DNA from: an uncultured Spirochaetota bacterium
GTDB lineage: Bacteria > Spirochaetota > Spirochaetia > SZUA-6 > CAVTHK01
Direction of reading: 5' to 3'
Length of the DNA stretch: 64,000 bases
NCBI GenBank assembly: GCA_963734495.1
Contig: CAVTHK010000007.1
Coordinates: 320,001-384,000, forward strand
This document shows positions 19,944 to 36,978 of this stretch, in pieces (the first letter of the stretch is position 1; every line of letters starts with the position of its first letter). Below the pieces are notes generated by a model. The model had not been told where the DNA came from. It did not search any database and saw only the letters and a program-made list of their open reading frames with translations. A program made the position numbers and the translations under genes.

Positions 19944-22784
19944 TCAATCGAACTCCCGCGGCCCCTTCCACATCAGCCCCTCCCCCTCGACCCGCCGGGG
20001 CCGGATCCGCGGCGCAATCGCCGCGGCGGCGAGAAAGGCCACCTCGAGCGCGCAGGCGACGGCGACCGCGGCGCCGCCGCCCGGGAGAAAGCCGTACGAG
20101 TGGAGACCGACGCGCATCAGGTTGACGCCGATCCACGAGAACATCACCGCGAGGGAGAGGGCTGCGGCGGCCCCCGCCGTGACGGCCGGGCGGAACAGCC
20201 GCGCGCGGGACGAGTGCAGGATCGCGGCGATCCAGAGGATCACGATCAAGGCGCCGTTTTCTTTGGGGTCCCAGTCCCAGAAGCGGCCCCAGGCGATGTC
20301 GGCCCAGGCCGCGCCCGCGAAGGTCCCGGCGACGGTCAGCAGCAGGGCCGGGCCGAGGGCCGCCCGGAGCGCGGCGTGCAGGCGATCCAGCCCCGCGACG
20401 TCGTCGGGGCGCAGCCAGCGGCGGGCGAGCCACGCGTGACCCAGCGCGGCCGCGGCGAGCGACGCCGCGTACCCGAGGCTCATCAGCCCGGCGTGAGCCG
20501 CCAGCCAGAGGTTCGTGTCCAGGGCAGCGGGGAGCACGGCGAACTCGTCGCCGGAGGCGGCGAGCACCCGGCCGACCACGGCCAGCAGCAGGGCCGCACC
20601 GCACCCTACCGCCAGCGCCGCGCGGCGCCGGCGAGCGACGTACGCGGCGAGCCCCGCCAGCGACAGCGCCCACGCGGCGAGCACGAACGTCTGCGCCAGC
20701 GTCGCGGCCGGCACCCTCGCGGTGATGAGGACCTGCAGCACCAGCCCCACGGAGAATGCGAGCAGGCCGAGCGCCAGCGCCGAGAGCGAGATCAGCTTCG
20801 CGCGCCTTTGCCGGTCGCCGGCCGCGAGGAGGAGCAGCCCGAGGCAATGCATGACGATCCCGACCGCGAACGGCCGCAGCCTGTCGTACAGCAGCTCCAG
20901 CCTCACGGCGCGCAGGCGGTCGGCCCCGCCGGCCGCTCGGGTGACCGACGCGTCCAGCTCGGAGAGCGCTCCCCTCATCGCGCGCCAGTCCCCGGCCGCG
21001 TAGGCGTCGGCGGCCCGCCCGAGCGCCGCGGACGCGCCCGAGTCGTCCGCGCCCGACGCGAGCGCCGCCACCGGGTTCGTCCAGCCCGCGGGGAGCGGGA
21101 TGATCGCCGGCACGACGGCACTGTAGTCGTCGGCCCAGCGCGCGAGCGCGTTGCGGAGCCTGCGCGCCGCGGCTGCGTCGACGCGCTCGTCCCACGGGCC
21201 GGCGAGCCGGTCGCTCACAGCCGCGACCTCGCGCAGGGAATGGCGTCCCGGCGAGAGGCCCAGGCGGGCGGAAACCGGGCCCGCGGGCACCGTAAAATCC
21301 GCATGCGGCCGCAGGTAGTCCGCCGACGCCACCAGGCGCGTGAACAGCGCCATGCGGCTCATCAGCGAGAGGATCTCCTCGTCCGCGGGCTGCGGGTCCT
21401 TGCGCGAGGAAAGCCTGCCGGCGAGCTCCTGCAGCCGCGCCTCGGCCGGCTCGAGCTGGTCGAAGCTCACGCGGCCCGCCGACACGCCGTCGAGGCGCAG
21501 CCTGCCGGGCGTCTCGCGCCGGCGCACCGCGAACACAGGGTCGGCCAGGGCCGTGTCGGGGGCAAAGAGCACCCGCGCCATCCAGGAGAGCGCCGACTCC
21601 CCCTTGAGTCCCGCCGAACCGGAAAGCTCGCGCAGGGTGAGCCTCGCGTAGGTTTCCAGGGGCATCAGCCGCCCGTCGGAGAGAACGGCGACGCGCCCGA
21701 GCGCGTCGAGCGGGGGAAGCCCCCTCGCTCCGGCGGGCCCAGGCGCGAGAAGCGAGAGCGCAAGCAGGGCGGCCAGGGGAGTCAGGCGCAGCCCGAGGTG
21801 CAGAGCCAACCCGAGCACGGTGAGGCCGAAGGCCGCATAAAGCGGTACGGGGCTGCGGCTCACGCCGAGGACGAGCACCCGCTTGCCCGCCTCATCGGTC
21901 CGCACTGAGCTCACGTAGACATTCAAGCCGGCCCGGCGCAAAGGCCGGTTCATGCCGAGCAGGGCCTCGGCGGACGACCCCGCGCCCTCGACCATGACCC
22001 TCGCGGCGACCGCCTGCAGCGTCTCGGTCTGCGGGTAGTAGGAGATCTGCAGGTCCTTGAGCGTCATCGCGAACGGCAGCCGCTCCTCGCGCCTGGCGAG
22101 CTTCGCCGTGAGCGAGGGGGCCGCGCCCGTCACGGCGGCCGTCCGCCCCGCCCAGACCACGGTCGGCGCCGTCCGCCCGCCCGAAGACGGCCGGAGGATC
22201 ACACCGGGTCGGTTCTCCGCCGGGTCCGCTTCGGGCCGCAGCGGCGCGAGGCTCGTGAGCGCGTCGCCCGAGGGCCCCACGAGGGGACGGCTGTTTGCCA
22301 GGTGCTGCTCCACGACCACCGAGGGCTCCCCCGGGACGTTCGATCCATCCCGGAGACGCTCGAAGGGCACGGCTATGCCTGCCGGGTCCAGGACCAGGTC
22401 CCAGGCGCCCGGGTCCAGCGAGGTCTCCACCCTCGCGCCCTCGCGCAGCGCGACGAACGAAAGGTCCGACGAAGCGGGCGCGGCGGCGGCCGCGCCGACC
22501 AGCACGACGACCGCGGCCACGAGCCCGGCGTGCACCAGCCCCAAGCCAAGCTGCCGGGGCCGCGGGCGCCGACGACGCAGGAAGGCAAAGAGCAGGTTCA
22601 CCCCGGCCGCAGTCGCGAGGAGCCTGAGCCCGGGCACGGGCAGGGGCCCGACCATCGTCCCCCAGGAGTCGAAGAACCGCCTGTGCACGGCCGCGACCCC
22701 ATGCGCGGGCGCGGCGAGCGTGCCCGTGAACAGGACGAGGATCGCGAGGAGGAGCAGCGCGGTCGTCACCCTGAGCGATCCCAT
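19944..22784 (-). CDS. ccsA: Fused cytochrome c biogenesis protein, System II (CcsBA / ResB-ResC)
   Basis: WWD motif WADIAWGRFWDWDPKE, LDTNLWLAAH, GLHSYG; ResB-like N-half (LVHAG, MNRPLR). Confidence 0.88.
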   Translation of the reverse strand: MGSLRVTTALLLLAILVLFTGTLAAPAHGVAAVHRRFFDSWGTMVGPLPVPGLRLLATAAGVNLLFAFLRRRRPRPRQLGLGLVHAGLVAAVVVLVGAAAAAPASSDLSFVALREGARVETSLDPGAWDLVLDPAGIAVPFERLRDGSNVPGEPSVVVEQHLANSRPLVGPSGDALTSLAPLRPEADPAENRPGVILRPSSGGRTAPTVVWAGRTAAVTGAAPSLTAKLARREERLPFAMTLKDLQISYYPQTETLQAVAARVMVEGAGSSAEALLGMNRPLRRAGLNVYVSSVRTDEAGKRVLVLGVSRSPVPLYAAFGLTVLGLALHLGLRLTPLAALLALSLLAPGPAGARGLPPLDALGRVAVLSDGRLMPLETYARLTLRELSGSAGLKGESALSWMARVLFAPDTALADPVFAVRRRETPGRLRLDGVSAGRVSFDQLEPAEARLQELAGRLSSRKDPQPADEEILSLMSRMALFTRLVASADYLRPHADFTVPAGPVSARLGLSPGRHSLREVAAVSDRLAGPWDERVDAAAARRLRNALARWADDYSAVVPAIIPLPAGWTNPVAALASGADDSGASAALGRAADAYAAGDWRAMRGALSELDASVTRAAGGADRLRAVRLELLYDRLRPFAVGIVMHCLGLLLLAAGDRQRRAKLISLSALALGLLAFSVGLVLQVLITARVPAATLAQTFVLAAWALSLAGLAAYVARRRRAALAVGCGAALLLAVVGRVLAASGDEFAVLPAALDTNLWLAAHAGLMSLGYAASLAAAALGHAWLARRWLRPDDVAGLDRLHAALRAALGPALLLTVAGTFAGAAWADIAWGRFWDWDPKENGALIVILWIAAILHSSRARLFRPAVTAGAAAALSLAVMFSWIGVNLMRVGLHSYGFLPGGGAAVAVACALEVAFLAAAAIAPRIRPRRVEGEGLMWKGPREFD

Positions 22785-22825
22785 GGTCCGCACAGGGTGG
22801 CGCAGGAGCAGCCCCAGGACCCCCC

Positions 22826-23779
22826 TCACGGCTCGAATTGCGTCCCGGTCCGGCCGGCGAGGGCGCGGCCGAGGTTTTCCGGGCTCGTGATGAATCCCCG
22901 GCCGCCGCGGTCCTCGAGGAACTCGATCATGGCGCGCACTTTGGGCCCCATGCTCCCCGCCAGGAAGTGCCCCGCAGCGAGGTACCGCCGAGCCTCCGCC
23001 GCGGTCACGCGGTCGAGCGGGCGCTGACGGCTCGTGTTGTACTCGAGGGCGACTTTCTCGACGGCCGTCGAGATCACGAACAGGTCCGCGCCGACCGCGC
23101 GCGCGAGCAGGCTCGACGCGAGGTCCTTGTCGATGACCGCTTCGACGCCTTCCAGGGACCCGTCGGCGCGGCGCACCACCGGGATGCCGCCGCCGCCGCA
23201 CGCGATCACCGTGAAGCCCTGCCTGAGGAGCGCAAGGATGGCGTCCAGCTCGACGATCTCGCGGGGCGCGGGGGACGGGACCACGCGGCGCCAGCCCCGG
23301 CCGGCATCCTCGCGCACGGTCCAACCCTGCTCGGCGGCTATCCGCCTCGCGCGCTCCTCGCTCATGTGCGAGCCGATCGGCTTGCTCGGGTCCGCGAACG
23401 CGGGATCGTCGGCGTCGACGAGGACCTCGGTGACGAGGGTGATCGCGCGGCCGCCGAGGCCGCGCCTCAGGAACTCGTTGTGGAAGGCCTTCTGGAACAT
23501 GTAGCCCGCCGCGCCCTGGACGTCGGCTCCCGCGTAGTCCATCGGGACGGGCGGCACCTCGCCCATGGCGAGCTCCGAGCGCCTCAGCGCGAAGCCCACC
23601 TGCGGCCCGTTGCCGTGGGTGAGGACGACACGCCAGCCTTCGACAATGAGATCGACGACGTGACGGATGGTCTCTCGGGCGGCTTCGTACTGGTCGGGGA
23701 TCGACTGACGCTGAGGGCCCTTGATCAGCGAGTTGCCGCCGACGGCCACGACGGCGATCCTACCCTCCCCGCCAGCCAC
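22826..23779 (-). CDS. arcC: Carbamate kinase
   Basis: AVGGNSL, THGNGPQVG, PSKPIG, WRRVVPSP, GGGGIPV, AVIDKD, GSMGPKV. Confidence 0.95.
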   Translation of the reverse strand: MAGGEGRIAVVAVGGNSLIKGPQRQSIPDQYEAARETIRHVVDLIVEGWRVVLTHGNGPQVGFALRRSELAMGEVPPVPMDYAGADVQGAAGYMFQKAFHNEFLRRGLGGRAITLVTEVLVDADDPAFADPSKPIGSHMSEERARRIAAEQGWTVREDAGRGWRRVVPSPAPREIVELDAILALLRQGFTVIACGGGGIPVVRRADGSLEGVEAVIDKDLASSLLARAVGADLFVISTAVEKVALEYNTSRQRPLDRVTAAEARRYLAAGHFLAGSMGPKVRAMIEFLEDRGGRGFITSPENLGRALAGRTGTQFEP

Positions 23780-23833: not shown

Positions 23834-24898
23834 TCAATCCCTGACGCGGGCCAGGGCGAGAGCGCGAAGGATCAAGGCGGGCAGCGGCCGTCCGGGATCG
23901 CGGCGGCGGAGGTCGAGGTACAGGCCCAGGCGCTTCGCGATCGGCACCTTGTGTGTCTCGACGAACTCGATGAGCGTGCCGTCGGGATCTTCGATGTAGG
24001 CAAAGTGGCCGGCCGCATCCCCCATCTCGAACGACGAGGAGCTGTCCACGGTGAAGGGGAACCCCGCGGCCGCGCAGCGTTCCCGCAGCTCCGCCATTCC
24101 GCGGATGTCGAAGCAGAGATGGATAAAGCCGAGGTCGCCCCAGTAACGGCCCTCGAAGAGCCGCCGGCCCGGCGCTTCGAGCGGCTGAATGAGCTCGAGA
24201 CGGCTCGAGCCGAACAGGCGGCTGAACGCGCCCCGGCGCGGGGCGGCGTGTCCGAGGAGCACGCGGCGGACCCGCCTGCGCCCGCCGGGGAGGCTCTCCA
24301 GGTCCGCGAACGTACCCTCGCGATCGTAGATCACCGTGTCATAGCCGACGATGTCGCGGTAGACCCGCAGGCTCGATTCCACGCTGCTCACCCCGAGGAC
24401 GCAGCCGCACGGTCCCCCGGTCGGGTGACGGCCTCCCGCGAACCAGTCGCGGCCCTCGACGACCTCGAAGAGCCTGCCCCAGGGGTCGCGCAGGTAGAAG
24501 TGGCGCGAGCCGGCCGGGTCGGGCACGACGTCGGTCAGAAGGTCGGCTCCCCTGCCCGCGAGAAAGGCGCGGGCGGCCGCCACGTCCCTCGCCTTGATGC
24601 GCGCCGCAAGAATGCCCAGGTCGCCGACGCCGGCTTGAGGCGCGAGCGGGCTCGGCTTGCGGCTGGTGTACTGCCAGATCTCGAAGCCGGAGCCGCCCTG
24701 CAGGTTCGCGGCGAGCACCGCGCGCCTCGACTGGACGACTCCGCCGGTGTAGCGGACCATGAACGGGGCTTCGCCGGCGTCATCGAACACCGGGACGTCG
24801 GTGCCGAAGCTGCGGCGGTACCAGCGGAAGGCCTCTTCGAGGTCCGCGACGCCGATGCCGATCTGCTGGATGCCGCTGACGAGGTACCCGGCGGCCAT
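23834..24898 (-). CDS. Two-domain VOC/glyoxalase family protein
   Basis: IQQIGIGVADL, FYLRDPWGRLFEV, FIHLCFD, YIEDPDGTLIEF. Confidence 0.85.
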   Translation of the reverse strand: MAAGYLVSGIQQIGIGVADLEEAFRWYRRSFGTDVPVFDDAGEAPFMVRYTGGVVQSRRAVLAANLQGGSGFEIWQYTSRKPSPLAPQAGVGDLGILAARIKARDVAAARAFLAGRGADLLTDVVPDPAGSRHFYLRDPWGRLFEVVEGRDWFAGGRHPTGGPCGCVLGVSSVESSLRVYRDIVGYDTVIYDREGTFADLESLPGGRRRVRRVLLGHAAPRRGAFSRLFGSSRLELIQPLEAPGRRLFEGRYWGDLGFIHLCFDIRGMAELRERCAAAGFPFTVDSSSSFEMGDAAGHFAYIEDPDGTLIEFVETHKVPIAKRLGLYLDLRRRDPGRPLPALILRALALARVRD

Positions 24899-25689
24899 CA
24901 GCGTTTGCGGGGGACCGCGCGGGTGTTGCCGGTCGTGATCCCGCCGTCGACCAGCACCATCTGGCCGTGCACGTAGCGCGACGCGTCGGATGCGAGAAAG
25001 ACCACCGTACCGTCGAGGTCATCCGGCTTGCCGGGCCTGCCGAGCGGGATCTTCTCCACGAGGTACGACACCCACTCCTGGTCTTCGTAGAGGACCTTGT
25101 TCTGCTCCGTGCGGAACCAGCCCGGCGCGAGGCAGTTGACGTTGATCCCGAAGGGCCCCCACTCCGATGCCAGGGCCTTGGTCATCTGCAGCACGCCCCC
25201 GCGGCTCGCGGAATACGGCACGATACCCGCGTAGCCGAAGACGCAGGTGACCGAGCCGATGTTGATGATCTTGCCGTACTTCCTCTCGATCATCCCGGGG
25301 GCGATCGCACGGGCCACGAAGAAGGCGCCCTTGAGGTTGGTGTCGACGACCGCGTCCCAGTCCTCCCAGGTCACGTCCACCGACGCCTTGCGGATGTTGC
25401 ACCCGGCGTTGTTCACGAGGACGTCAACCGCCGGGACGTCGCGCCTCAGCGCGCGGCCGAGCTCCTCGATGCTTTCCTTGACCCTTACGTCCAGCGAGTA
25501 CGCGCGCGCCTGCCGTCCGAGGGCCCTGAGCTCGGCGACGGTGGCGTCGCAGTCCGCGGCGGCGCGCGCAGTCACGACGACGTCGGCGCCGGCGCGCGCC
25601 AGGGCGAGCGCCATGTACCGGCCGAGGCCGCGGCTTCCTCCGGTGACGAGGGCGAGGCGGCCGGAGAGATCGAAGGGGTCAGGGGCCAC
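24898..25689 (-). CDS. SDR oxidoreductase, gluconate 5-dehydrogenase/KduD-like
   Basis: TGGSRGLG, NNAG, YSASR (YxxxR variant of YxxxK), APGWFRT. Confidence 0.88.
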   Translation of the reverse strand: MAPDPFDLSGRLALVTGGSRGLGRYMALALARAGADVVVTARAAADCDATVAELRALGRQARAYSLDVRVKESIEELGRALRRDVPAVDVLVNNAGCNIRKASVDVTWEDWDAVVDTNLKGAFFVARAIAPGMIERKYGKIINIGSVTCVFGYAGIVPYSASRGGVLQMTKALASEWGPFGINVNCLAPGWFRTEQNKVLYEDQEWVSYLVEKIPLGRPGKPDDLDGTVVFLASDASRYVHGQMVLVDGGITTGNTRAVPRKR

Positions 25690-25758
25690 GGGAATCTCCT
25701 TTCGGTGCAGCGGCGGGTACGCCGGGCCACAGCACGGCGGCGGGGCGCGCGCCCGCGA

Positions 25759-26790
25759 TCAGGGCTTGAGGATGACCTTGAAGAGCCGCTCCTTGCCTTC
25801 GTGCAGAAGATGGAACCAGTGCGGCGCCTCCTCGAGCGGAACGACCTTGCTGATGAGGCTCTGTACGTCCAGGCGGCCCGATGCGATCAGGGTGAGGCAG
25901 GCCGGGTACTCGCCCGCGGACGCCACCGTTCCGCGCACGTCGAGCTCCCGCTGCACCACGACCTGGAGCGGGAACTCGCCTTTCGGGGTGAGGTTCCCGA
26001 TCATCACGCACCGGCCCCCCTTGCGGACGCAGCGCACGGCCAGGTCGACGGTCGGCGCGAACCCCACCGCCTCGAGGCTCACGTCCGCGCCTTCGCCCGC
26101 GGTGAGCGCCCGGATCGCTTCGACGGCGTCGGTCTTTTTCGGGTTGATCGCGTGGTCGGCCCCCAGGCGGCGCGCCTCCTCGAGCTTGTAGTCGACGAGG
26201 TCCACCGCGATCACCTGGCCGGCGCCGGCCAGGCGCGCCGCCTGGATCGTCAGCAGGCCGATGATCCCGCAGCCGATGACGACGACGTTGTCGCCGAGGT
26301 GGATGCCCGCGCGCTCGACCGCGTGCACGGCGATCGATACCGGCTCCACCATCGCCGCCTTCTCGAACGCGAGCCCCTCGGGCAGCGGGACCACGATGTG
26401 CTCGGGAACGACGACAAAGTCGGCCATCGCCCCGTCCTGGCGATACTCGTCGCAGGAGACTCCGAGCACCTTGCGGTTCGAGCAGAGGTTGGGCTTGCCC
26501 GTGAGGCAGTAGCGGCAGCGGTTGCAGTAGATCGTCGAGTCGAACGTGATCCGGTCGCCCGGCTTGAAGCGGGTCACCGCGGCGCCGACGGCCTCCACGA
26601 CTCCCGCGGCCTCGTGGCCCATCACGATCGGCGGGATCCGCCGGCCGGTCTGTCCCGTCATGCCGTGGACATCGCTCCCGCAGATGCCGACCGAATCGAC
26701 GCGCACCAGGAGCTCATCGGCCCCGTGCTTCGGGACCGCGCGCTCCTCCATCTGGAACGTGAGGGGTTTCGTGTGGACCAGCGCTTTCAT
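25759..26790 (-). CDS. Zinc-dependent polyol/sugar-acid dehydrogenase
   Basis: GICGSDVH, GHE, CNRCRYC..C structural Zn site, GCGIIG. Confidence 0.9.
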   Translation of the reverse strand: MKALVHTKPLTFQMEERAVPKHGADELLVRVDSVGICGSDVHGMTGQTGRRIPPIVMGHEAAGVVEAVGAAVTRFKPGDRITFDSTIYCNRCRYCLTGKPNLCSNRKVLGVSCDEYRQDGAMADFVVVPEHIVVPLPEGLAFEKAAMVEPVSIAVHAVERAGIHLGDNVVVIGCGIIGLLTIQAARLAGAGQVIAVDLVDYKLEEARRLGADHAINPKKTDAVEAIRALTAGEGADVSLEAVGFAPTVDLAVRCVRKGGRCVMIGNLTPKGEFPLQVVVQRELDVRGTVASAGEYPACLTLIASGRLDVQSLISKVVPLEEAPHWFHLLHEGKERLFKVILKP

Positions 26791-26824
26791 CGCGGGGCAT
26801 TATGAGGCACGCGCCGCCCGCGGG

Positions 26825-28159
26825 TCAATCTTCGAGGATGATGATCTCGACGCGCCGGTTGAGCGCCATGCCCTCGGGCGTGTCGTTGGAGGCAACGGGT
26901 TCGGAGGCCCCGCGCCCTTCGTAGACAAAGCGCCCCGCCTCCAGCCCCGACGCCACGAAGAAGTCGACGACGGCCCTCGCGCGCTCGACCGACAGGGCCT
27001 TCTGACCGGCCTCGGTGCCGGCACGAGCCGTGTGTCCGATGACGCGGAAAGTGCGGCCCTGGATCTTCTTGAGCGCGCGCGCCACCGCCTCAAGGCGCGG
27101 CCTTTCCTCAGGCAGCACGACCGCCTGGTCGGCGACGAAGCGGATGTCGCTGATCTCGAGCTTCACCCCGGCTTCGGTCTCGCTGACCTTGACGCCGGGC
27201 GTGCCGCCCGGTTCGCTCGAAAGGCTGCCGGCCACTTCGCCCGCGCCGCCGCCGGTCTGTCGCTCGCCGCCTCCGGCACCCGGAGACCCGGGACCGGCGC
27301 CGGCGGGCGAGGCTCCGATCCGCGGCGCCGGACGCTCGCGCGCGAGCTCCGGCCCGAGCGCCTTCTTCACGTCCTCGGCGATGAGGCCGCGATCCATGGC
27401 GGCGATGCCTTCGTACCAGGTGAGCATGAAACCCTTGAAGCCCACCGACTTCCCGCCCTCGAGGGCGTACGTCTCGTCCACCATGGTCTCGACAAAGACC
27501 GGCCGGCGGGCGCCTTCATCATAATAAATCTTCGCGGAGTGGCTGCCGCTGATCGACCGTATGCGCGAGTCGCCGAGCGGATCGTCGCCGCCCTTGTAGC
27601 GCAGGGCGTAGCGCGCCGCGACCAGCTGCAGGTTCCGGCCGTTGCGCACGACCGGCCCCTGGTACTCATATCCGGCGTAGATGCGCACCCGCGTGTGCTT
27701 GCCGTCGCGGAACGGCTCCACGACCCGCGCACCGAACGCTTCCCAGCGATCGCGGGGGGCGAGGTCGCGGGTCGGAAAGACCGGGAAGCTGCGCAGGGCG
27801 GGATAGGCCTGGTCCGCGGGCACGTCGTAAGTGCCGTCCGCTCGGATGGAAAACCGCACGGGCACGACGTCGTCGATGCGCTTGGCGACGAGCCTCGAGT
27901 CCCGCCTGGTCTCCTCGAAGACGTAGAACGAGCCCTCGACGTCGGCTCCGCTCTCCGCGCCGCGGACGTCGAGCACGCCACGCACCTCGCGGTACGAGAG
28001 GCCGACGAACTTACCGTCCTCGTAGCGGCGGAGGTCGCTGCGCTCGGTGATCTTGAACTTGTCCCCCGCAGCGTACGCGACCTCGAAACGCACGCCGTCG
28101 GCGGTCATCGGCTGCGCGGCCAGGAGGAGGAAGGCAAGGAGCGCGGCGGCGGACGTCAA
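26825..28159 (-). CDS. Exported OmpA-family (peptidoglycan-binding C-domain) protein
   Basis: Signal-peptide-like N-terminus, GHTA..LSVERARAV..GRGASEP..NRRVEI; TTGA overlap with spt stop. Confidence 0.88.
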   Translation of the reverse strand: MTSAAALLAFLLLAAQPMTADGVRFEVAYAAGDKFKITERSDLRRYEDGKFVGLSYREVRGVLDVRGAESGADVEGSFYVFEETRRDSRLVAKRIDDVVPVRFSIRADGTYDVPADQAYPALRSFPVFPTRDLAPRDRWEAFGARVVEPFRDGKHTRVRIYAGYEYQGPVVRNGRNLQLVAARYALRYKGGDDPLGDSRIRSISGSHSAKIYYDEGARRPVFVETMVDETYALEGGKSVGFKGFMLTWYEGIAAMDRGLIAEDVKKALGPELARERPAPRIGASPAGAGPGSPGAGGGERQTGGGAGEVAGSLSSEPGGTPGVKVSETEAGVKLEISDIRFVADQAVVLPEERPRLEAVARALKKIQGRTFRVIGHTARAGTEAGQKALSVERARAVVDFFVASGLEAGRFVYEGRGASEPVASNDTPEGMALNRRVEIIILED

Positions 28160-29418
28160 CCCGGCGTGATCCCCAGCTTGCGCCCGGCTTCGCCCGCGAT
28201 CTCGAGGATCCGGTCGAGGTCCTGGTCGGTGTGCGTCGCCATGTACGACGTGCGGATCAGGCAGCGGTTCGGCGGCGTGGCGGGAGGCACGACCGGATTG
28301 GTGTACACCCCGCCATCCAGGAACGCGCGCCAGAGCGCAAAGGTCTTGTCCATGGGGCCGACGATCAGGGGGATGATGGGCGTCTCGGCGACGCCGATGT
28401 CGTAGCCGAGATCCTTGAACCCCTTGAGCATCTTGCGGCCGATCGCCTGAAGCCGCTGCACGTGGTGCGGCTCCCGCTCGATGATGTCGAGGCTGGCCAT
28501 CACGGAGGCGATGTTCGCCGGGGGCATGCTTGCGGTAAAGATGAGCGCCCGCGCGAAGTGCTTGATGTAGTCGACGATCATGGCGTCGCCCGCAACGAAC
28601 CCGCCGATGCTGGCGAAGGACTTGGAGAACGTGCACATCAGCAGGTCCGTGAGGCGCTTGTCGCCGTAGTGCTCCGTGGTGCCGCGGCCCGTCTTGCCGA
28701 TCGTGCCGATCGCGTGCGCCTCGTCGAGGTACACGGCGGCGCCGTGCTTTTCCGCCAGCGCCTTGAGCTCCGGCAGCTTGACGATGTCGCCCTCCATGCT
28801 GAAGACGCCGTCGGTCACGATCAGGATGGGCTCCCCCTGCGTGATGCCTTCGAGTTGCTGCTCCAGGTCCTCCATGTTGTTGTGCTTGTAGCGGTGCATC
28901 TTGACGTCCCGGTTCAGCCCCACGCTCAGGAGGATGCCGTCCACGATCGAGGCATGGTTGTACCGGTCGGTCATCACGTGCTCCTGCTTGCCGAGCAGGG
29001 CCTGGATGGAGCCGAGGTTGGTCTGGTAGCCCGTGGTAAAGCAGAGCGCCGCCTCGCGGCCGACGAACGCGGCGAGCCTGGCCTCGAGCTCCTCATGCAG
29101 CGTGAGGGTCCCGTTGATGAACCGCGATCCCGAGCAGCTCGTGCCGTGCTCGGCGATGGCCCGGCGCGCCGCCTCGATCACGCGCGGGTCGTGGGCCAGC
29201 CCGAGGTAGTTGTTCGACCCCGCCATGACCAGATCCCGGCCGCCCATGACCACGTGGCTGCCGTGGTTCTCCTGGATCGGGCGGAAGAACGGGTAGATGC
29301 CGGCTTCGCGCGCGTCGCGCGCGTCGGTGAAGTTGTAGCACTTCGCGAAGACGTAGGGCTGGCCGGCAGGCTTCCTGACGTGAGTCTTCTCGCGCACCGC
29401 TGTCTTCCTGGGCGTCAT
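28156..29418 (-). CDS. spt: Serine palmitoyltransferase-like PLP enzyme (alpha-oxoamine synthase family)
   Basis: YPFFR, GSNNYLGL, GTSCSGSRFINGTL, HASIVDG, DGVFSMEGD, DEAH, TFSKS, IFTAS. Confidence 0.78.
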   Translation of the reverse strand: MTPRKTAVREKTHVRKPAGQPYVFAKCYNFTDARDAREAGIYPFFRPIQENHGSHVVMGGRDLVMAGSNNYLGLAHDPRVIEAARRAIAEHGTSCSGSRFINGTLTLHEELEARLAAFVGREAALCFTTGYQTNLGSIQALLGKQEHVMTDRYNHASIVDGILLSVGLNRDVKMHRYKHNNMEDLEQQLEGITQGEPILIVTDGVFSMEGDIVKLPELKALAEKHGAAVYLDEAHAIGTIGKTGRGTTEHYGDKRLTDLLMCTFSKSFASIGGFVAGDAMIVDYIKHFARALIFTASMPPANIASVMASLDIIEREPHHVQRLQAIGRKMLKGFKDLGYDIGVAETPIIPLIVGPMDKTFALWRAFLDGGVYTNPVVPPATPPNRCLIRTSYMATHTDQDLDRILEIAGEAGRKLGITPG

Positions 29419-30248
29419 CTGGAGATCTCCTTGGCTTTTCGTTTGCGCGCCTTTCCCGCGTCGGAATCCATGACGGCGTAGACGAGGCGAGGCGCTATTC
29501 TGTGGACGAAATCGGTGAGCCGGCTCATGAAACCGCAGAACACGAAGGTGCGGTTCCCGCGCAGGCCGCGGATCAGGGAGCGGGCGACCTGCTCCGGGCT
29601 GTAGGTCCCCGCCGTCCCCTCGACCGCGTGCGTTTCGGCGGGCTTGTTGACGTTCTCCCGGTCGAGCCCGGGCGTGGCCGTGTTCGGCGGGCAGAGCACC
29701 ACCACGCGGATCTTCCACGGGGCGAGCTCGTTGCGGAGGGCCTCCGAAAATCCCACCACGCCGAACTTGGTGGCGCAGTACGCGGTCGCGCCGAAGTAGC
29801 CGACGAGGCCGCCGACGGACGCCACGTTCACGATCGTGCCGCCGCCCCGGGCTTTCATGTGCGGGAGGACAGCGCGGACGGTGTGGAAGCAGCCGAAAAG
29901 GTTGGTCGCGGTCATGTCGCGCAGGTGGGCTTCGGTCACGTTCTCGAAATAGTCGATATAGGCGAAACCCGCGTTGTTGACGAGCAGGTCGGGAGCCCCG
30001 ACGTCCCGGACGAGGCCGTCGAGGACGCGGCTCACCGCGGCGGGGTCGGCCACGTCGCAGGCGGCCCCCACGACCCGCTGCCCCTCGGAGAGCCGCAGGG
30101 ACTGCAGGTGCGCCGCCGCGGCATCGAGCCGCGAGCGGTCGCGCGCGATGATTGCCACGCTGGCGCCCGTCCGGACGAGCTCGGTAGCGACCGCGAAGCC
30201 GATGCCGCTCGACCCGCCGGTCACATAGCAAGTCTTGAACTCTCTCAA
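29415..30248 (-). CDS. SDR resembling 3-ketodihydrosphingosine reductase (KDSR/Tsc10-like)
   Basis: TGGSSGIG, YCATK, and PPNTATPGLDRENVNKPAET resembling KDSR PPDTDTPG..EN..KP.ET. Confidence 0.75.
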   Translation of the reverse strand: MREFKTCYVTGGSSGIGFAVATELVRTGASVAIIARDRSRLDAAAAHLQSLRLSEGQRVVGAACDVADPAAVSRVLDGLVRDVGAPDLLVNNAGFAYIDYFENVTEAHLRDMTATNLFGCFHTVRAVLPHMKARGGGTIVNVASVGGLVGYFGATAYCATKFGVVGFSEALRNELAPWKIRVVVLCPPNTATPGLDRENVNKPAETHAVEGTAGTYSPEQVARSLIRGLRGNRTFVFCGFMSRLTDFVHRIAPRLVYAVMDSDAGKARKRKAKEISR

Positions 30249-30297
30249 TTATCCCCGCCTGCGTAGCCGTCCGGGCGCGACCCGGCGAAGTCCGTGA

Positions 30298-30326
30298 AGC
30301 GTACAATCTATGCCCCACGCTGTCAA
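30298..30326 (-). promoter_or_regulatory. sigma70 promoter for SDR-spt-ompA operon
   Basis: TTGACA-17-TACGCT on minus strand. Confidence 0.6.
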
Positions 30327-30451
30327 GTTTTGGGCAGCGGCGTGGCAGCCGCGTGGGCAGCCGCGTTTCGAGGCGCCGGGCGCCCCCCGCCGTGTCGCCG
30401 GCGCGAACAGTCGCTTGCAGTCCCCGAGGCGTTTCGGTACCTTCTTCTCGT

Positions 30452-31948
30452 ATGGCCCGCAAGGTCTACCAGTTCAACATGGGCCACGTTCGCACGCGGC
30501 TTGTCGACACGCTCAAGAGCCGGCGCGAGGGTGCCACCATCGCCGACCTCGTCGCGGCCACCGGCCTCCCCGCGGTGCAGGTGCAGCAGGGCATCCGCGA
30601 GGTCGCGGACGAATACGACGGGCACCTGCGCGTCACCGAATCGGGCGAGGTCCTCTACCACTTCCCCAACGGGATGCGCAGCCGCAAGCGCGGCGCGGCC
30701 GCCGTCGCCAGGCGCGTTGTGGGACGGGCGGCGAAAGCGACCGGCCGGGTCCTCAAGTGGCTCTTCAAGGCCTGGATCACGGTCATGCTCGTCGGCTACT
30801 TCGCCCTGTTCGTCGCGATCGTCGTTCTCGCGGCCCTCGCGTCGATGGCCATGTCGGCGGCGAGCCGCAGCGACGGCCGCAGGGACGGCGGAGGGGGCGG
30901 CTTCTTTTCCTTCTACCTCGCCGCCAGGATGTTCGAGCTGTTCCTCTGGCTCTGGTTCGCGCGCGGCCCGCGCGCGACGCGCTCGCGGGGCAGGCCTCTG
31001 CGCCAGTCCGTCTTTGCGTACGTGTTCGGGGAGCCGGACCCGAACGCGCGTTGGGAGGAGACCGAGCGCCGAGCGATCGTGCACTTCCTGCGCTCGAACA
31101 AGGGGCTGATCACCGCGGAGGAGCTGATGGCGCTCACAGGTGCATCGCCCGAAGAGGCTCAAGCGAAGATCAACCGTCTCCTCCTCGAGCTCGAGGGCGA
31201 GCCGGAAGTCACGGACGAGGGGACGATCGTCTTCAGGTTCGAAAACCTCCTCCGCAGCCGCGCCGAAGAGCTGCGCGCCGAGAGCCGCGAGCGGCTGCCG
31301 CACAAGCGCCTCGTCCCGTTCAACCGGAACGAGCGCTCGCGAAACGGCTGGATCACCGTCTTCAATCTGGCGAACGCCGGCTTCGGCACCTATTTCGCCG
31401 CGCTGGCGGCGGCCAAACCGACGGAGGTCTTCACGACGCTCGCGAACGGGACGCGGCTGACGCAGATCGACGGCGCATACCTGTACCACTTCGTGATCAG
31501 AGCGGCGACGGCGCTCGGCGCCCTGAAGCCCGAGTCCCTCATATACGTCGCGCTCGGCGTCGTGCCGCTGACGTTCTCCGCGTTCTTCTTCCTGGTGCCC
31601 TTCGTCAGGCGCCTGCGCGAACGGGCCGCCAACGAGGCGACGCGCCGCGAGAACCTGCGCAGGCTCGTCTACGCCCGCGTGCTCGCCGACCCGACGCTCG
31701 TCGACCCCCGCGACATCCGGCCGACCGCCCCCGAGGAAACCACGCGCAACGCGCAGGCCGATGTCGAGCGCCTGCTCAAGGAGCTCGCCGCGACCCGCGG
31801 CGGGGAGCCCGTACAGGCGGCCGACGGCGCGTGGGTCTGGCGTTTCCCGGAGCTCGAGCGCGAGCGACAGGACGTCGAGCGCACGAGGATCGCCACCAGC
31901 ACAGCGCAGTACGACGTCGGCGGGACGGTGTTCGACTCGGACAGTTAG
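30452..31948 (+). CDS. Hypothetical membrane protein with three repeated modules
   Basis: Several TM segments; repeats YDGHLRVTESGEVLYHF / LEGEPEVTDEGTIVFRF / RGGEPVQAADGAWVWRF. Confidence 0.8.
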   Translation: MARKVYQFNMGHVRTRLVDTLKSRREGATIADLVAATGLPAVQVQQGIREVADEYDGHLRVTESGEVLYHFPNGMRSRKRGAAAVARRVVGRAAKATGRVLKWLFKAWITVMLVGYFALFVAIVVLAALASMAMSAASRSDGRRDGGGGGFFSFYLAARMFELFLWLWFARGPRATRSRGRPLRQSVFAYVFGEPDPNARWEETERRAIVHFLRSNKGLITAEELMALTGASPEEAQAKINRLLLELEGEPEVTDEGTIVFRFENLLRSRAEELRAESRERLPHKRLVPFNRNERSRNGWITVFNLANAGFGTYFAALAAAKPTEVFTTLANGTRLTQIDGAYLYHFVIRAATALGALKPESLIYVALGVVPLTFSAFFFLVPFVRRLRERAANEATRRENLRRLVYARVLADPTLVDPRDIRPTAPEETTRNAQADVERLLKELAATRGGEPVQAADGAWVWRFPELERERQDVERTRIATSTAQYDVGGTVFDSDS

Positions 31949-34024: not shown

Positions 34025-36720
34025 CTACGCCGTTCCCTGGTACGCCGCCTTGCCCTGCTGCTTGCGTGCCCTGAGCACCGCCTGCGCTGCGGACAGCCGC
34101 GCGACCGGCACCCGGTAAGGCGAGCAGGAAACGTAGTTCATGCCCACCGTGTAGCAGAACTCGATCGACGACGGGTCCCCGCCGTGCTCGCCGCAGATCC
34201 CGACCTTGATGTCCGGGCGACCGCTGCGGCCCTTCTTCACGCCCACGTCGACAAGCTGGCCGACGCCTTCGCGGTCGAGCTCCTGGAACGGGTCCTTCTC
34301 GAGGATGCCCTGCGCGAGGTAGTCCGGGAGGAAGCTCCCGATGTCGTCGCGGGAGAAGCCGAACGTCATCTGCGTGAGGTCGTTCGTGCCGAACGAGAAG
34401 AACTCGGCCACCTTCGCGATCTTGTCCGCGGTCAGCGCCGCGCGGGGCAGCTCGATCATCGTCCCGATGGTGTACTTGACCCTGGTCTTCGTCTTCGCGA
34501 ACACGGCCTCGCAGACCCGCTCGGCGTTCTTGCGCAGGATCTCCAGCTCGGCGGTCATGCCGACGAGGGGGATCATGATCTCGGGCAGGACCTCGACGCC
34601 AGCTTTGGCCAGCTCGCACGCCGCGGTCATGATGGCCTCGACCTGCATGTCGTAGACTTCGGGGTACGTGATGCCGAGGCGGCAGCCGCGGTGTCCGAGC
34701 ATCGGGTTGAGCTCGTGCAGCGAGTCGATGCGCGCCTTGAGCTGAGCCAGGGGCACCCCGGTCTTCTCCGCCATCGCCTTGGTTTCCGGGGCGGTCTTGG
34801 GGACGAACTCGTGCAGCGGCGGGTCGAGGAGCCGGATCGTCACGGGCAGGCCCGCCATCTCTTTGAAGATGCCTTTGAAGTCGGCCTTCTGCAGGTTGCC
34901 GAGCTTCTTGAGCACCTTGCGCCTCGCCTCGACGCCGTCGGCGACGATCATCTCCTGGAACAGGTCGAGCTTGCCGGCGTCGAAGAACATGTGCTCGGTG
35001 CGGGTGAGCCCGACGCCTTCGGCGCCGAACTCCCGGGCGACCCTGGCGTCGCGCGGAAGGTCCGCGTTGGTGCGGACGCGAAAGCCCTTGTCCTTGATGC
35101 CGTCACGCACGGCCGAGAGGCGCACTTCGTCCGCCCACTCGAGCAGCGTCTTGAAGTCTCCGGCGATCTTCGGCTTGACGAGCGCGACCTGCCCCGTGAA
35201 CACCTCGCCGGTGGTCCCGTCGATCGTGAGCCAGTCGCCTTCCTTGTACTTCTTGTCCTGGATGGTCGCGATCTTGCCCTGGATGCTCACCGCCTTGCAG
35301 CCCACGACGCACGGCGTGCCCATGCCGCGGCCGACGACCGCGGCGTGGCTGGTCATGCCGCCGGTCGAGGTGAGGATGCCCTGGGAAGCGCTCATGCCGC
35401 CGATGTCCTCGGGCGAGGTCTCGCGACGCAGGAGCAGCACCTTCTTGCCCTGCTTGGCCCACTTCTCGGCTTCGGCCGCGTCAAAGACGATCTGGCCGCT
35501 CGCCGCGCCGGGCGAGGCGTTCAGGCCCTTGGCGATCGGCTTGAGGGCGCGGCGCGCCTTGGGGTCGATCATCGGGTGCAGGAGCTGGTCGAGCTGGTCC
35601 GGGCTCGACGCGCAGGAGCGCCTCCTCCTTGCTGATGACCCCTTCCTTGACCATGTCGACCGCGACCCTGACCGCGGCGAGCCCGGTGCGCTTGCCGTTC
35701 CTGGTCTGCAGCATGTAGAGCTTGCCCTGCTGGATGGTGAACTCCATGTCCTGCATGTCGCGGTAGTGCGACTCCAGGTGCCTGCGGAAGCCCTCGAGCT
35801 GGTCGTAGGCCTGCGGCTGCTTCTTGCGCAGGTTGGTGATGGTCAGCGGCGTGCGGATGCCCGCCACCACGTCCTCGCCCTGCGCGTTCATCAGGAACTC
35901 GCCGTAGAAGATGTTCTCGCCGGTGGACGGGTCGCGGGTGAAGCAGACGCCGGTGCCCGGAGTCGTTGCCGAAGTTGCCGAACACCATCGTCTGGACGTT
36001 GACGGCCGTGCCGAGGAGCCCCTTGATGCTGTTCAGCTCCCGGTACTTGATGGCGCGCTCGTTGTTCCACGACCCGAAGACCGCGTCGATGGCGCCCCAG
36101 AGCTGGGTCATCGGGTCGGTCGGGAACTCCTCTTTCGTGTGCTTCTTGAACACGCCGCGGTAGAGCGCCACGACCTTCTTGAGGTCCTCCGCGTCGAGCT
36201 CGGTGTCCTCTTCGACGCCCTTGGCCTTCTTGACCGACTGCAGCGCCTCTTCGAAGGCGTGATGCTCGACGCCCCGCACGACGTCGCCGTACATCTGCAT
36301 GAAGCGCCGGAACGCGTCCCAGGCGAAGCGCGGGTTGCCGGTCTTCCGGATGAGCCCCTCGACGACCTGGTCGTTGATGCCGAGGTTGAGCACGGTGTCC
36401 ATCATTCCGGGCATGGAGGCCGCGGCGCCGGAGCGGACGGACACCAGCAGCGGGTTCGAGGGATCGCCGAACTTCATCCCGGTGACGCGCTCGACGCGCC
36501 GCAGGTTCTCCACGACCTCTGTGCGCAGCTCGGCCGGGTACTGGTTGCCGTTCTTGTAGTAGTAGTCGCAGACCTCAGTAGAGATCGTAAACCCGGGCGG
36601 GACCGGAATGCCGAGGTTCGTCATCTCCGCCAGGTTTGCGCCTTTTCCGCCGAGCAGGTTTTTCATGTCGGCCCGACCTTCGGCTTTGCCTTCGCCGAAG
36701 AAATACACGTAGCGACCCAT
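34025..36720 (-). CDS. ppdK: Pyruvate phosphate dikinase (frameshifts near 35957 and 35601)
   Basis: [63 protein letters not shown] spread over three frames. Confidence 0.95.
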
Positions 36721-36826
36721 GGATTGCCTCCTGAAGAATGCGGGACGCGCTGCAAATGACCGAGAAAAGGGGACCGAAAAGCGCCTTGAGTCCCGGGTCG
36801 GGGCCGAAGGCCTCGAACCGGGCCCG

Positions 36827-36855
36827 ACTCTAACGAACCGGGGCGGGCCTGTCAA
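36827..36855 (-). promoter_or_regulatory. sigma70 promoter for ppdK
   Basis: TTGACA-17-TAGAGT on minus strand. Confidence 0.65.
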
Positions 36856-36938
36856 CCTAACCATGGTGTCAGACAGGGTCTGACAGGGGGTTAGGCCACG
36901 CCTGACGCACACCTCAAGCAGCCTGTCACGTGCCACAG

Positions 36939-36978
36939 GCAACAGAAGAGCCCTCGTTTCCGAGGGCTCTTCTGCTGC
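36939..36978 (-). terminator. Hairpin terminator after sigma factor gene
   Basis: CAGAAGAGCCCTCG-TTTC-CGAGGGCTCTTCTG inverted repeat. Confidence 0.6.

Follow-up and report, generated by a model that had tools for sequence, protein, structure and literature searches.

A serine palmitoyltransferase gene coupled to the gene of a KDSR-like reductase: a candidate sphingoid-base operon in an uncultured spirochaete

By which route would a spirochaete make the long-chain base of a sphingolipid? In eukaryotes, serine palmitoyltransferase (SPT) acts first and the reductase KDSR follows. The question is raised by a locus in a stretch of 64,000 nucleotides, called the window here, from an uncultured Spirochaetota bacterium (assembly GCA_963734495.1, contig CAVTHK010000007.1, positions 320,001 to 384,000 of the forward strand). 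In this locus the gene of a short-chain dehydrogenase/reductase (SDR; P0001) overlaps that of an SPT-like, pyridoxal phosphate (PLP)-dependent alpha-oxoamine synthase (AOS; P0002), which in turn overlaps the gene of an OmpA-like protein (P0251). We propose, with a probability of about 0.7, that this operon is a sphingoid-base/dihydroceramide module in which SPT is combined with a eukaryote-like reductase that replaces the usual bacterial one. The features of the locus are the following.

29415-30248, minus strand: P0001, SDR of 277 amino acids (aa) with a TTG start; predicted cytoplasmic 3-ketosphinganine reductase of a KDSR-like family
28156-29418, minus strand: P0002, PLP-dependent AOS of 420 aa with an ATG start; predicted SPT of the Bacteroidota (CFB) type
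26825-28159, minus strand: P0251, OmpA-like envelope protein of 444 aa with a putative TTG start
29415-29418, minus strand: ATGA shared by the stop codon of the SDR gene and the start codon of the SPT gene
28156-28159, minus strand: TTGA shared by the stop codon of the SPT gene and the putative TTG start codon of the gene for P0251
30298-30326, minus strand: promoter-like site found by eye (TTGACA, 17 nt, TACGCT), with a weak -10 element

An initial annotation, made from the letters of the window and its open reading frames (ORFs), described the SDR and the PLP enzyme as overlapping by ATGA behind one sigma70 promoter. The overlap is borne out by the ORF coordinates: bases 29415-29418 of the minus strand are common to the end of P0001 and the start of P0002 and read ATGA on the coding strand. 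The motifs quoted there are also all present, namely YPFFR, GSRFINGTL and TFSKS in P0002 and PPNTATPGLDRENVNKPAET in P0001. The promoter did not hold up in a consensus scan of positions 26500-30600, which returned no promoter-like site upstream of the SDR gene; by eye, a perfect -35 element (TTGACA, 30326-30321 on the minus strand) is followed by a 17-nt spacer and a -10 element, TACGCT, with 3/6 matches. The third overlapping gene of the locus, the OmpA-like one, had been overlooked. The window has a G+C content of 69.5% and abounds in long spurious ORFs, and one ORF of 768 aa in another frame spans both the SDR and the synthase gene. The codon bias of P0001 and P0002 is that of the real genes in the window (G+C at third codon positions of the SDR gene, 0.90), near relatives of the same length exist for both (identity 92% over the 277 aa of P0001 and 91% over the 420 aa of P0002), and Pfam recognizes adh_short in P0001 (184.6 bits) and Aminotran_1_2 in P0002 (169.6 bits). 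Of the words sampled from 28156-30248, at most 16% occur in any one sequencing run. A translationally coupled operon of SDR, SPT and OmpA-like genes would be the best explanation of this arrangement.

The genome that carries the locus (G000; 5.38 Mb, 18 contigs) has a completeness score of 83%. The spirochaete origin assumed in the initial annotation agrees with the nearest named synthase homologues listed, which are Spirochaetota metagenome-assembled genomes (MAGs; 60-68% identity) and Spirochaeta thermophila DSM 6578 (64%). A synthase copy of 64% identity is found in two complete genomes of the same class, next to the SDR gene in both.

Is the synthase an SPT? NCBIfam scores, scores against structures in the Protein Data Bank (PDB), active-site residues and a tree all group P0002 with SPTs, as its motifs had led the initial annotation to expect. 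The best NCBIfam model is NF047600 (SPT, CFB type) with 487.5 bits, against 360.7 for bioF, 349.0 for the BioF/Kbl subfamily and 335.9 for 2-amino-3-ketobutyrate ligase (KBL). Among PDB entries, Sphingobacterium multivorum SPT (SmSPT; 3a2b/8guh) ranks best with 390 bits; Sphingomonas-type SPTs reach about 260-266, KBL 248, CapB (28eh) 224, SulA (7u7h) 208 and BioF 207 bits. In an alignment to 8guh, the PLP lysine of P0002, K266 in the T-F-S-K-S motif, corresponds to Lys244 of SmSPT, and H155 corresponds to His138, the residue of SmSPT that stacks against PLP and binds the carboxylate of the substrate. The residues that hold PLP and L-serine in SmSPT, as given in the structural part of PMC10196870, are Asn52, Gly80, Ser81, His138, Ser185, Asp210, Ala212, His213, Thr241, Ser243 and Lys244, and their equivalents in P0002 are, in the same order, N69, G97, S98, H155, S207, D232, A234, H235, T263, S265 and K266. 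The sole changed contact is Met271 of SmSPT, I293 in P0002, which that description lists as a main-chain contact (PMC10196870).

In a tree of 103 rows (IQ-TREE quick mode, LG+G4, SH-aLRT support only) rooted with E. coli BioF, E. coli Kbl and the KBL of the genome itself, P0002 falls within a clade of 10 rows, all from Spirochaetota (support 100). This clade nests in one of 47 rows (support 96) that is rich in SPTs flanked by genes like bCerS and CerR, the acyltransferase and reductase of bacterial ceramide synthesis. The ingroup also holds Bacteroidaceae SPTs that pass the NF047600 cut-off; BioF, Kbl and the genome's KBL lie outside. The initial annotation had proposed a phylogeny with SPT, BioF, KBL and CapB; the placement of P0002 among SPTs and apart from BioF and KBL stands, whereas CapB was compared by PDB score, outside the tree. 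That P0002 condenses L-serine with a long-chain acyl thioester is a well-supported prediction.

What, then, is the reductase? The motif TGGSSGIG (G11-G17) and residues S144, Y157, K161 and R36 of P0001 are invariant in 25/25 members of its SDR family. The Ser-Tyr-Lys residues and the glycine cofactor motif are generic to SDRs, and an arginine after strand 2, where R36 stands in P0001, fits NADP(H) binding in classical SDRs. P0001 is probably NADPH-dependent. Because strand 1 begins at residue 6 in a confident structure model (pLDDT 94), the protein has no signal peptide. After the catalytic core, the family consensus reads CPPDTDTPGF-REN-TKP-ET, and a PDB search with the C-terminal half finds the loop PG-D-EN--KP--T in common with fungal TSC10 (8jat; query residues 3-91); the alignments of most other chains listed in that search stop at about residue 50-66, whereas those of two weaker rows extend to 83-87. 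Among 120 listed SDR homologues, 3-dehydrosphinganine reductase is the JGI automatic name of 17 of the 23 JGI-named rows, and the two nearest Atlas clusters to P0001 likewise carry it as automatic name.

The view of the initial annotation that the SDR is KDSR-like stands with regard to the substrate loop shared with TSC10 and falls short with regard to the proven bacterial enzyme. Membership in the Bacteroides KdsR family (BT_0972, NF049977) was rejected, P0001 scoring 98.5 bits against a cut-off of 400; with this model two others (104.9 and 98.8 bits) come before P0001 among the 31 SDR matches of the genome, and none exceeds the cut-off. An identity with CerR, an NDUFA9-like extended SDR, was rejected as well: P0001 is a classical SDR of 277 aa, whereas the CerR-like neighbours of SPT in 24 loci (see below) are of the Pfam Epimerase type. 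On sequence grounds, P0001 is a member of an SDR family separate from both KdsR and CerR, with a substrate-loop motif as in fungal TSC10.

Does the pairing recur? A sample of 401 Spirochaetota genomes was searched for both genes. An SPT-like gene is found in 73 of them at E<=1e-90; the looser E<=1e-70, which also admits a more distant AOS class, raises this number to 123. For the SDR the count is 96 genomes at E<=1e-35 and 55-56 at about 1e-50. The two are immediately adjacent (gaps of 0-118 nt) in 6/401 genomes, this one included (the others are G030, G094, G230, G258 and G183); the co-occurrence that the initial annotation had suggested looking for across the phylum thus exists. In G258 and G183, genes for a bCerS-like protein, the SDR and SPT stand in a row. 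In 13 more genomes SDR and synthase lie 2.7-3.5 kb apart, giving 19/401 within 5 kb, and in one they lie 9.3 kb apart; the synthase of those 13 genomes belongs to the distant AOS class and is 39-42% identical to P0002. At locus L110 (contig C56 of G208, which like the other 12 of these genomes is of family f41), the one locus of this kind that was read, a gene for an AMP-binding, acyl-activating enzyme lies between the distant AOS and a P0001-like SDR.

Closer to the host, a genome of the same genus (G401) has the SDR-SPT pair 51 nt apart; among the 30 closest genomes SPT occurs in 19, and the SDR stands beside it in G401 alone. Metagenome homologues of the SDR and of SPT also occur on contigs of exactly equal size, in 8 pairs from the two lists of 120 top matches and 3 more via cluster members; these are presumably the same contigs, and some of them (2388 and 3466 nt) have room for little else. 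A P0001-like SDR also directly adjoins a gene of the epimerase/dehydratase family at loci L111, L132, L134, L135, L140, L141 and L149. The product of that gene scores 167-186 bits on the CerR-like profile described below, under the range of its members, and the arrangement is a second conserved pairing.

The neighbourhoods of SPT across phyla give this arrangement a context. In 80 named loci (L013-L092) found with an SPT alignment, neighbours within 7 kb were clustered. A bCerS-like GNAT-type protein of about 375 aa lies near SPT in 27/80 loci, a CerR-like epimerase-type protein of about 330 aa is near SPT in 24, and an SDR in 26; the CerR-like protein and an SDR occur together at a single locus, L050. 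The SDR neighbours scanned fall into three subfamilies, which differ by phylum: KdsR-like (Oscillospiraceae and Acholeplasmataceae loci), FabG-like (Kapaibacterium) and P0001-like (a Spirochaetaceae locus). The KdsR-like neighbours in the two Bacillota/Mycoplasmatota loci scanned score 220.0 and 239.8 bits with NF049977. The near-exclusive alternation of CerR-like protein and SDR suggests a non-orthologous replacement of one pathway step across phyla. In four Spirochaetota MAG loci (L015-L018), SPT has no SDR, bCerS-like or CerR-like neighbour and is followed after 3-31 nt by a gene for a FabZ-like dehydratase of about 140 aa.

Profiles of the bCerS-like and CerR-like proteins, built ad hoc from these neighbour clusters, were run against the genome. 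They reveal four bCerS-like genes, all outside the window (C9:253190-254180, C13:52657-53778, C13:399065-400199 and C11:269167-270241). No CerR-class match reaches the range of the profile members, the best one in the genome having 142.6 bits against 300-501 for members.

These observations can be combined into a pathway. SPT would join L-serine and a long-chain acyl thioester to give 3-ketosphinganine, and the co-translated cytoplasmic SDR would then reduce this at its 3-keto position to a long-chain base of the sphinganine type, in the order of the eukaryotic route. The SDR would thereby take the place that the extended SDR CerR holds in most bacterial ceramide clusters. The unlinked bCerS-like GNAT acyltransferases may finally N-acylate the base to dihydroceramide. 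The initial annotation had likewise proposed a eukaryote-like two-step route; the identities of the genes and their recurrence agree with it, and the order of the steps is what we infer from sequence.

A number of observations weigh against this proposal. The 487.5 bits of P0002 lie below the curated equivalog cut-off of NF047600 (640). Within the tree ingroup this cut-off is passed by just 3 rows, all Bacteroidaceae (646.7, 678.3 and 668.4 bits), and SPTs supported by their context also fall below it, such as those of L036, flanked by bCerS and CerR (481.1), and of the myxobacterium Corallococcus (L090; 513.3). The rows of the tree exclude experimentally characterised SPTs and cysteate enzymes. 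For the reductase, TSC10 ranks 14th with 97.3 bits when P0001 is the query as a single sequence and 6th with 156.6 bits when the family profile is used. It is not among the Foldseek PDB matches listed for the P0001 model (ranks to 47), which are generic SDRs, and the fold therefore does not discriminate the identity of the SDR. Many unrelated SDRs are able to reduce 3-keto long-chain bases, as results described in PMC11211663 indicate, and so homology alone predicts little about the substrate of P0001.

Genome context also supplies points on this side. In 18 other genomes of the same order that have SPT, this SDR adjoins it in none; 14 of the 56 genomes that bear the SDR at E<=1e-50 lack an AOS match even with the threshold relaxed to E<=1e-70; an epimerase-like gene stands beside the SDR instead of SPT in at least 7 genomes; and the SPT-adjacent SDRs are scattered over the SDR family tree and do not form one clade. 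The SDR family is not specific to SPT. For the third step, all four bCerS-like genes are broken into parts that lie in two or three reading frames, and a class-III aminotransferase-like gene of the genome (C9:397165-398291) is likewise in three pieces. Since a bCerS-like gene is intact in G401, of the same genus (C14:61762-62886; 433.3 bits, with the whole profile covered), assembly indel errors are the likelier cause, which suggests that these frame breaks do not reflect gene decay.

The order of the steps could also be the bacterial one, in which a bCerS-like enzyme N-acylates the SPT product and the SDR then reduces the 3-oxo-ceramide, so that P0001 would be a cytoplasmic analogue of CerR and not a KDSR. 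In bacterial ceramide synthesis the order is disputed, acylation before reduction and the reverse having both been put forward in the account given by PMC11087976, and the Caulobacter model there has acylation first. The lineage does possess bCerS-like genes, that is, genes of the Caulobacter-type pathway, which counts against the eukaryote-like order; such a gene directly adjoins the SDR-SPT pair in G258 and G183, and the mutual replacement of SDR and CerR-like neighbours noted above would fit the bacterial order as well. On the other hand, the substrate loop of P0001 is shared with TSC10, which acts on the free base. The CerR of Caulobacter is periplasmic according to PMC11087976, whereas P0001 has no signal peptide, and the SDR-SPT pair also occurs in G030, an S. 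thermophila-like genome with no bCerS-like match at E<=1e-5. For S. thermophila, sphingoid bases that are free or modified in another way are predicted. We regard acylation before reduction as rather unlikely here.

The amino acid could be other than serine, with cysteate leading to a sulfonolipid (CapB/SulA and a ketocapnine reductase) or alanine or glycine leading to 1-deoxy bases instead of sphinganine. Capnine synthesis, too, employs an AOS and an SDR in the schemes of PMC11211663 and PMC13692747, 1-deoxy-ceramides are described as abundant in anoxic waters (PMC11334938), and the shortfall of P0002 against the curated SPT cut-off would agree with a different substrate. The cysteate reading is nevertheless judged unlikely, CapB and SulA scoring far below SmSPT in the PDB search and the serine-contact residues being kept in P0002. 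At the positions that tell the remodelled substrate pocket of a cysteate fatty acyltransferase (CFAT) from that of SPT, P0002 has the SPT residue each time (Ser98 for Ala82 of COCFAT, Ser157 for Cys141 and Ala296 for Lys280), when these are mapped by the numbering offsets in PMC13692747 and not by direct alignment. Taken as a whole, an amino acid other than serine appears quite improbable.

Were the pair unrelated to long-chain bases, P0002 would be a BioF, a KBL or the synthase of another alpha-amino ketone (a signal or a polyketide-like compound) that the SDR reduces. The JGI automatic name of the synthase family is 8-amino-7-oxononanoate synthase, one NCBI record calls a synthase homologue PigH, and the SDR family is also found without an SPT-like gene, all of which would fit such a role. 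The BioF identity was rejected, however, on the bioF score, which is below the cut-off of that model (426), on the tree placement, and on the absence of any bioB match in this 83% complete genome, where bioA also has nothing over its cut-off; this agrees with the initial annotation, which had argued against BioF from the lack of bio genes nearby. The KBL identity was rejected on the scores of P0002 with the KBL and SPT models and on the presence of a true KBL elsewhere: just one more AOS match exists in the genome (2 matches at E<=1e-5), and it is a glycine C-acetyltransferase with 599.5 bits on TIGR01822 against a cut-off of 493. A CqsA-type model gives P0002 214 bits. A role of the pair outside long-chain bases is therefore highly improbable, and the sphingoid-base module set out above is the reading we prefer.

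The third gene of the operon may tie the lipid to the cell envelope. P0251 has a signal-peptide-like N-terminus and a C-terminal peptidoglycan-binding domain (Pfam OmpA, 61.8 bits). In its structure model (pLDDT 85.6), an N-terminal all-beta domain, confidently predicted to be a beta-barrel (about residues 26-252), is joined to the OmpA domain by a disordered linker rich in Gly and Pro (277-319). Homologues at 83-85% identity retain the N-terminus. An Atlas search with the N-terminal domain (about 230 residues) gave scores of at most 0.81 and no family, and the Foldseek matches of P0251 cover the OmpA domain, with none for the N-terminal domain. In a VIA comparison, the barrel matches outer-membrane barrels (BrkA, Z 12.8, root-mean-square deviation 3.9, 186 residues aligned) and lipid-binding barrels (lipovitellin, Z 11.4, 5.1, 196 aligned); as matches the two kinds of barrel are nearly tied. 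OmpA-like homologues occur on contigs equal in size to those of SDR/SPT homologues (6027, 200797, 10680, 52717 and 24656 nt). A full-length OmpA-like copy was not found in G401, and the coupling of this gene therefore seems confined to the nearest relatives.

How does the proposed module compare with known systems? The eukaryotic pair of SPT and reductase (TSC10 of yeast and other fungi, KDSR/FVT1 of animals) carries out the same two chemical steps and, as proposed here, in the same order. P0001 and TSC10 are both classical SDRs in which a Ser-Tyr-Lys triad is combined with the loop PG-D-EN--KP--T. Eukaryotic SPT is a membrane heteromer, whereas the SPT of the locus is predicted to be of the soluble bacterial homodimer type. 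P0001 differs from the eukaryotic reductases in having no N-terminal or clear C-terminal membrane anchor, and in that its gene overlaps the SPT gene, with which it would be co-transcribed. Among bacteria, Bacteroides thetaiotaomicron has the one proven KDSR, BT_0972 (KdsR), which reduces 3-ketosphinganine with NADPH and is possibly multifunctional, as PMC9278070 presents it. Its SPT, BT_0870, is of the same CFB type as P0002, and KdsR is also a classical SDR (PMC9278070). BT_0972 is not clustered with SPT in the description of that paper, whereas the P0001 gene overlaps that of SPT, and P0001 lies outside the KdsR family.

The Spt-bCerS-CerR system of Caulobacter, as outlined in PMC11087976, likewise begins with SPT, and bCerS-like genes exist in the present lineage too; CerR acts there, whereas a classical cytoplasmic SDR here stands in its place, with no CerR-class match in the member range. 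The sulfonolipid route (CapB/SulA), in the outlines of PMC13692747 and PMC11211663, is also an AOS reaction followed by ketoreduction by an SDR. The ketocapnine reductases covered in those outlines are not clustered with their synthase, and P0002 is far closer to SPT.

Spt-like genes have been predicted in 38 Black Sea phyla, and a replacement of bCerS/CerR by non-homologous proteins has been raised as a possibility, in passages of PMC11334938 and its preprint. The string 'Spiroch' is absent from the main texts of both, figures and supplements lying outside this check. Literature searches on spirochaetes and on KDSR/SDR adjacency returned no report of spirochaete sphingolipids or of an SDR-SPT operon. 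The pathway as such is known, and its variant with SPT coupled to a KDSR-like SDR is a credible sphingoid-base module.

The window contains further genes, all on the minus strand in the regions described here. Directly downstream of the operon (23834-26790), and preceded by a promoter-like site at 26828-26799, are genes for a Zn-dependent alcohol dehydrogenase, a second SDR and a two-domain protein of the glyoxalase/dioxygenase family. At 19944-22826, a single long ORF joins ResB-like and CcsA-like (cytochrome c assembly) regions. A pyruvate-phosphate-dikinase/phosphoenolpyruvate (PEP)-synthase-like enzyme is encoded as two ORFs with a four-base overlap (34025-35572 and 35569-36942), with the PPDK_N domain in the upstream ORF and the mobile and PEP-binding domains in the downstream one.

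A wider picture may be drawn tentatively, as a possibility that we consider doubtful at present. Bacteria would have two interchangeable keto-reductions in sphingolipid synthesis, one by the extended SDR CerR, which PMC11087976 describes for Caulobacter as periplasmic, and one by a cytoplasmic classical SDR. The latter would have been recruited at least 3 times, as a KdsR-like enzyme in Bacillota, a FabG-like one in Kapaibacteria and Ignavibacteria, and a eukaryote-KDSR-like one in Spirochaetota. The lineages with a classical SDR would reduce first and then acylate with a bCerS-type enzyme, and in the present lineage a beta-barrel protein anchored to peptidoglycan and coupled to the module would handle the lipid or position it in the envelope.

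An SPT coupled to a KDSR-like SDR, with no recognisable CerR, would offer a clean and compact genetic system for the eukaryote-like route in bacteria. It also leads to the prediction of sphingoid lipids in Spirochaetota, including the cultured Spirochaeta thermophila.

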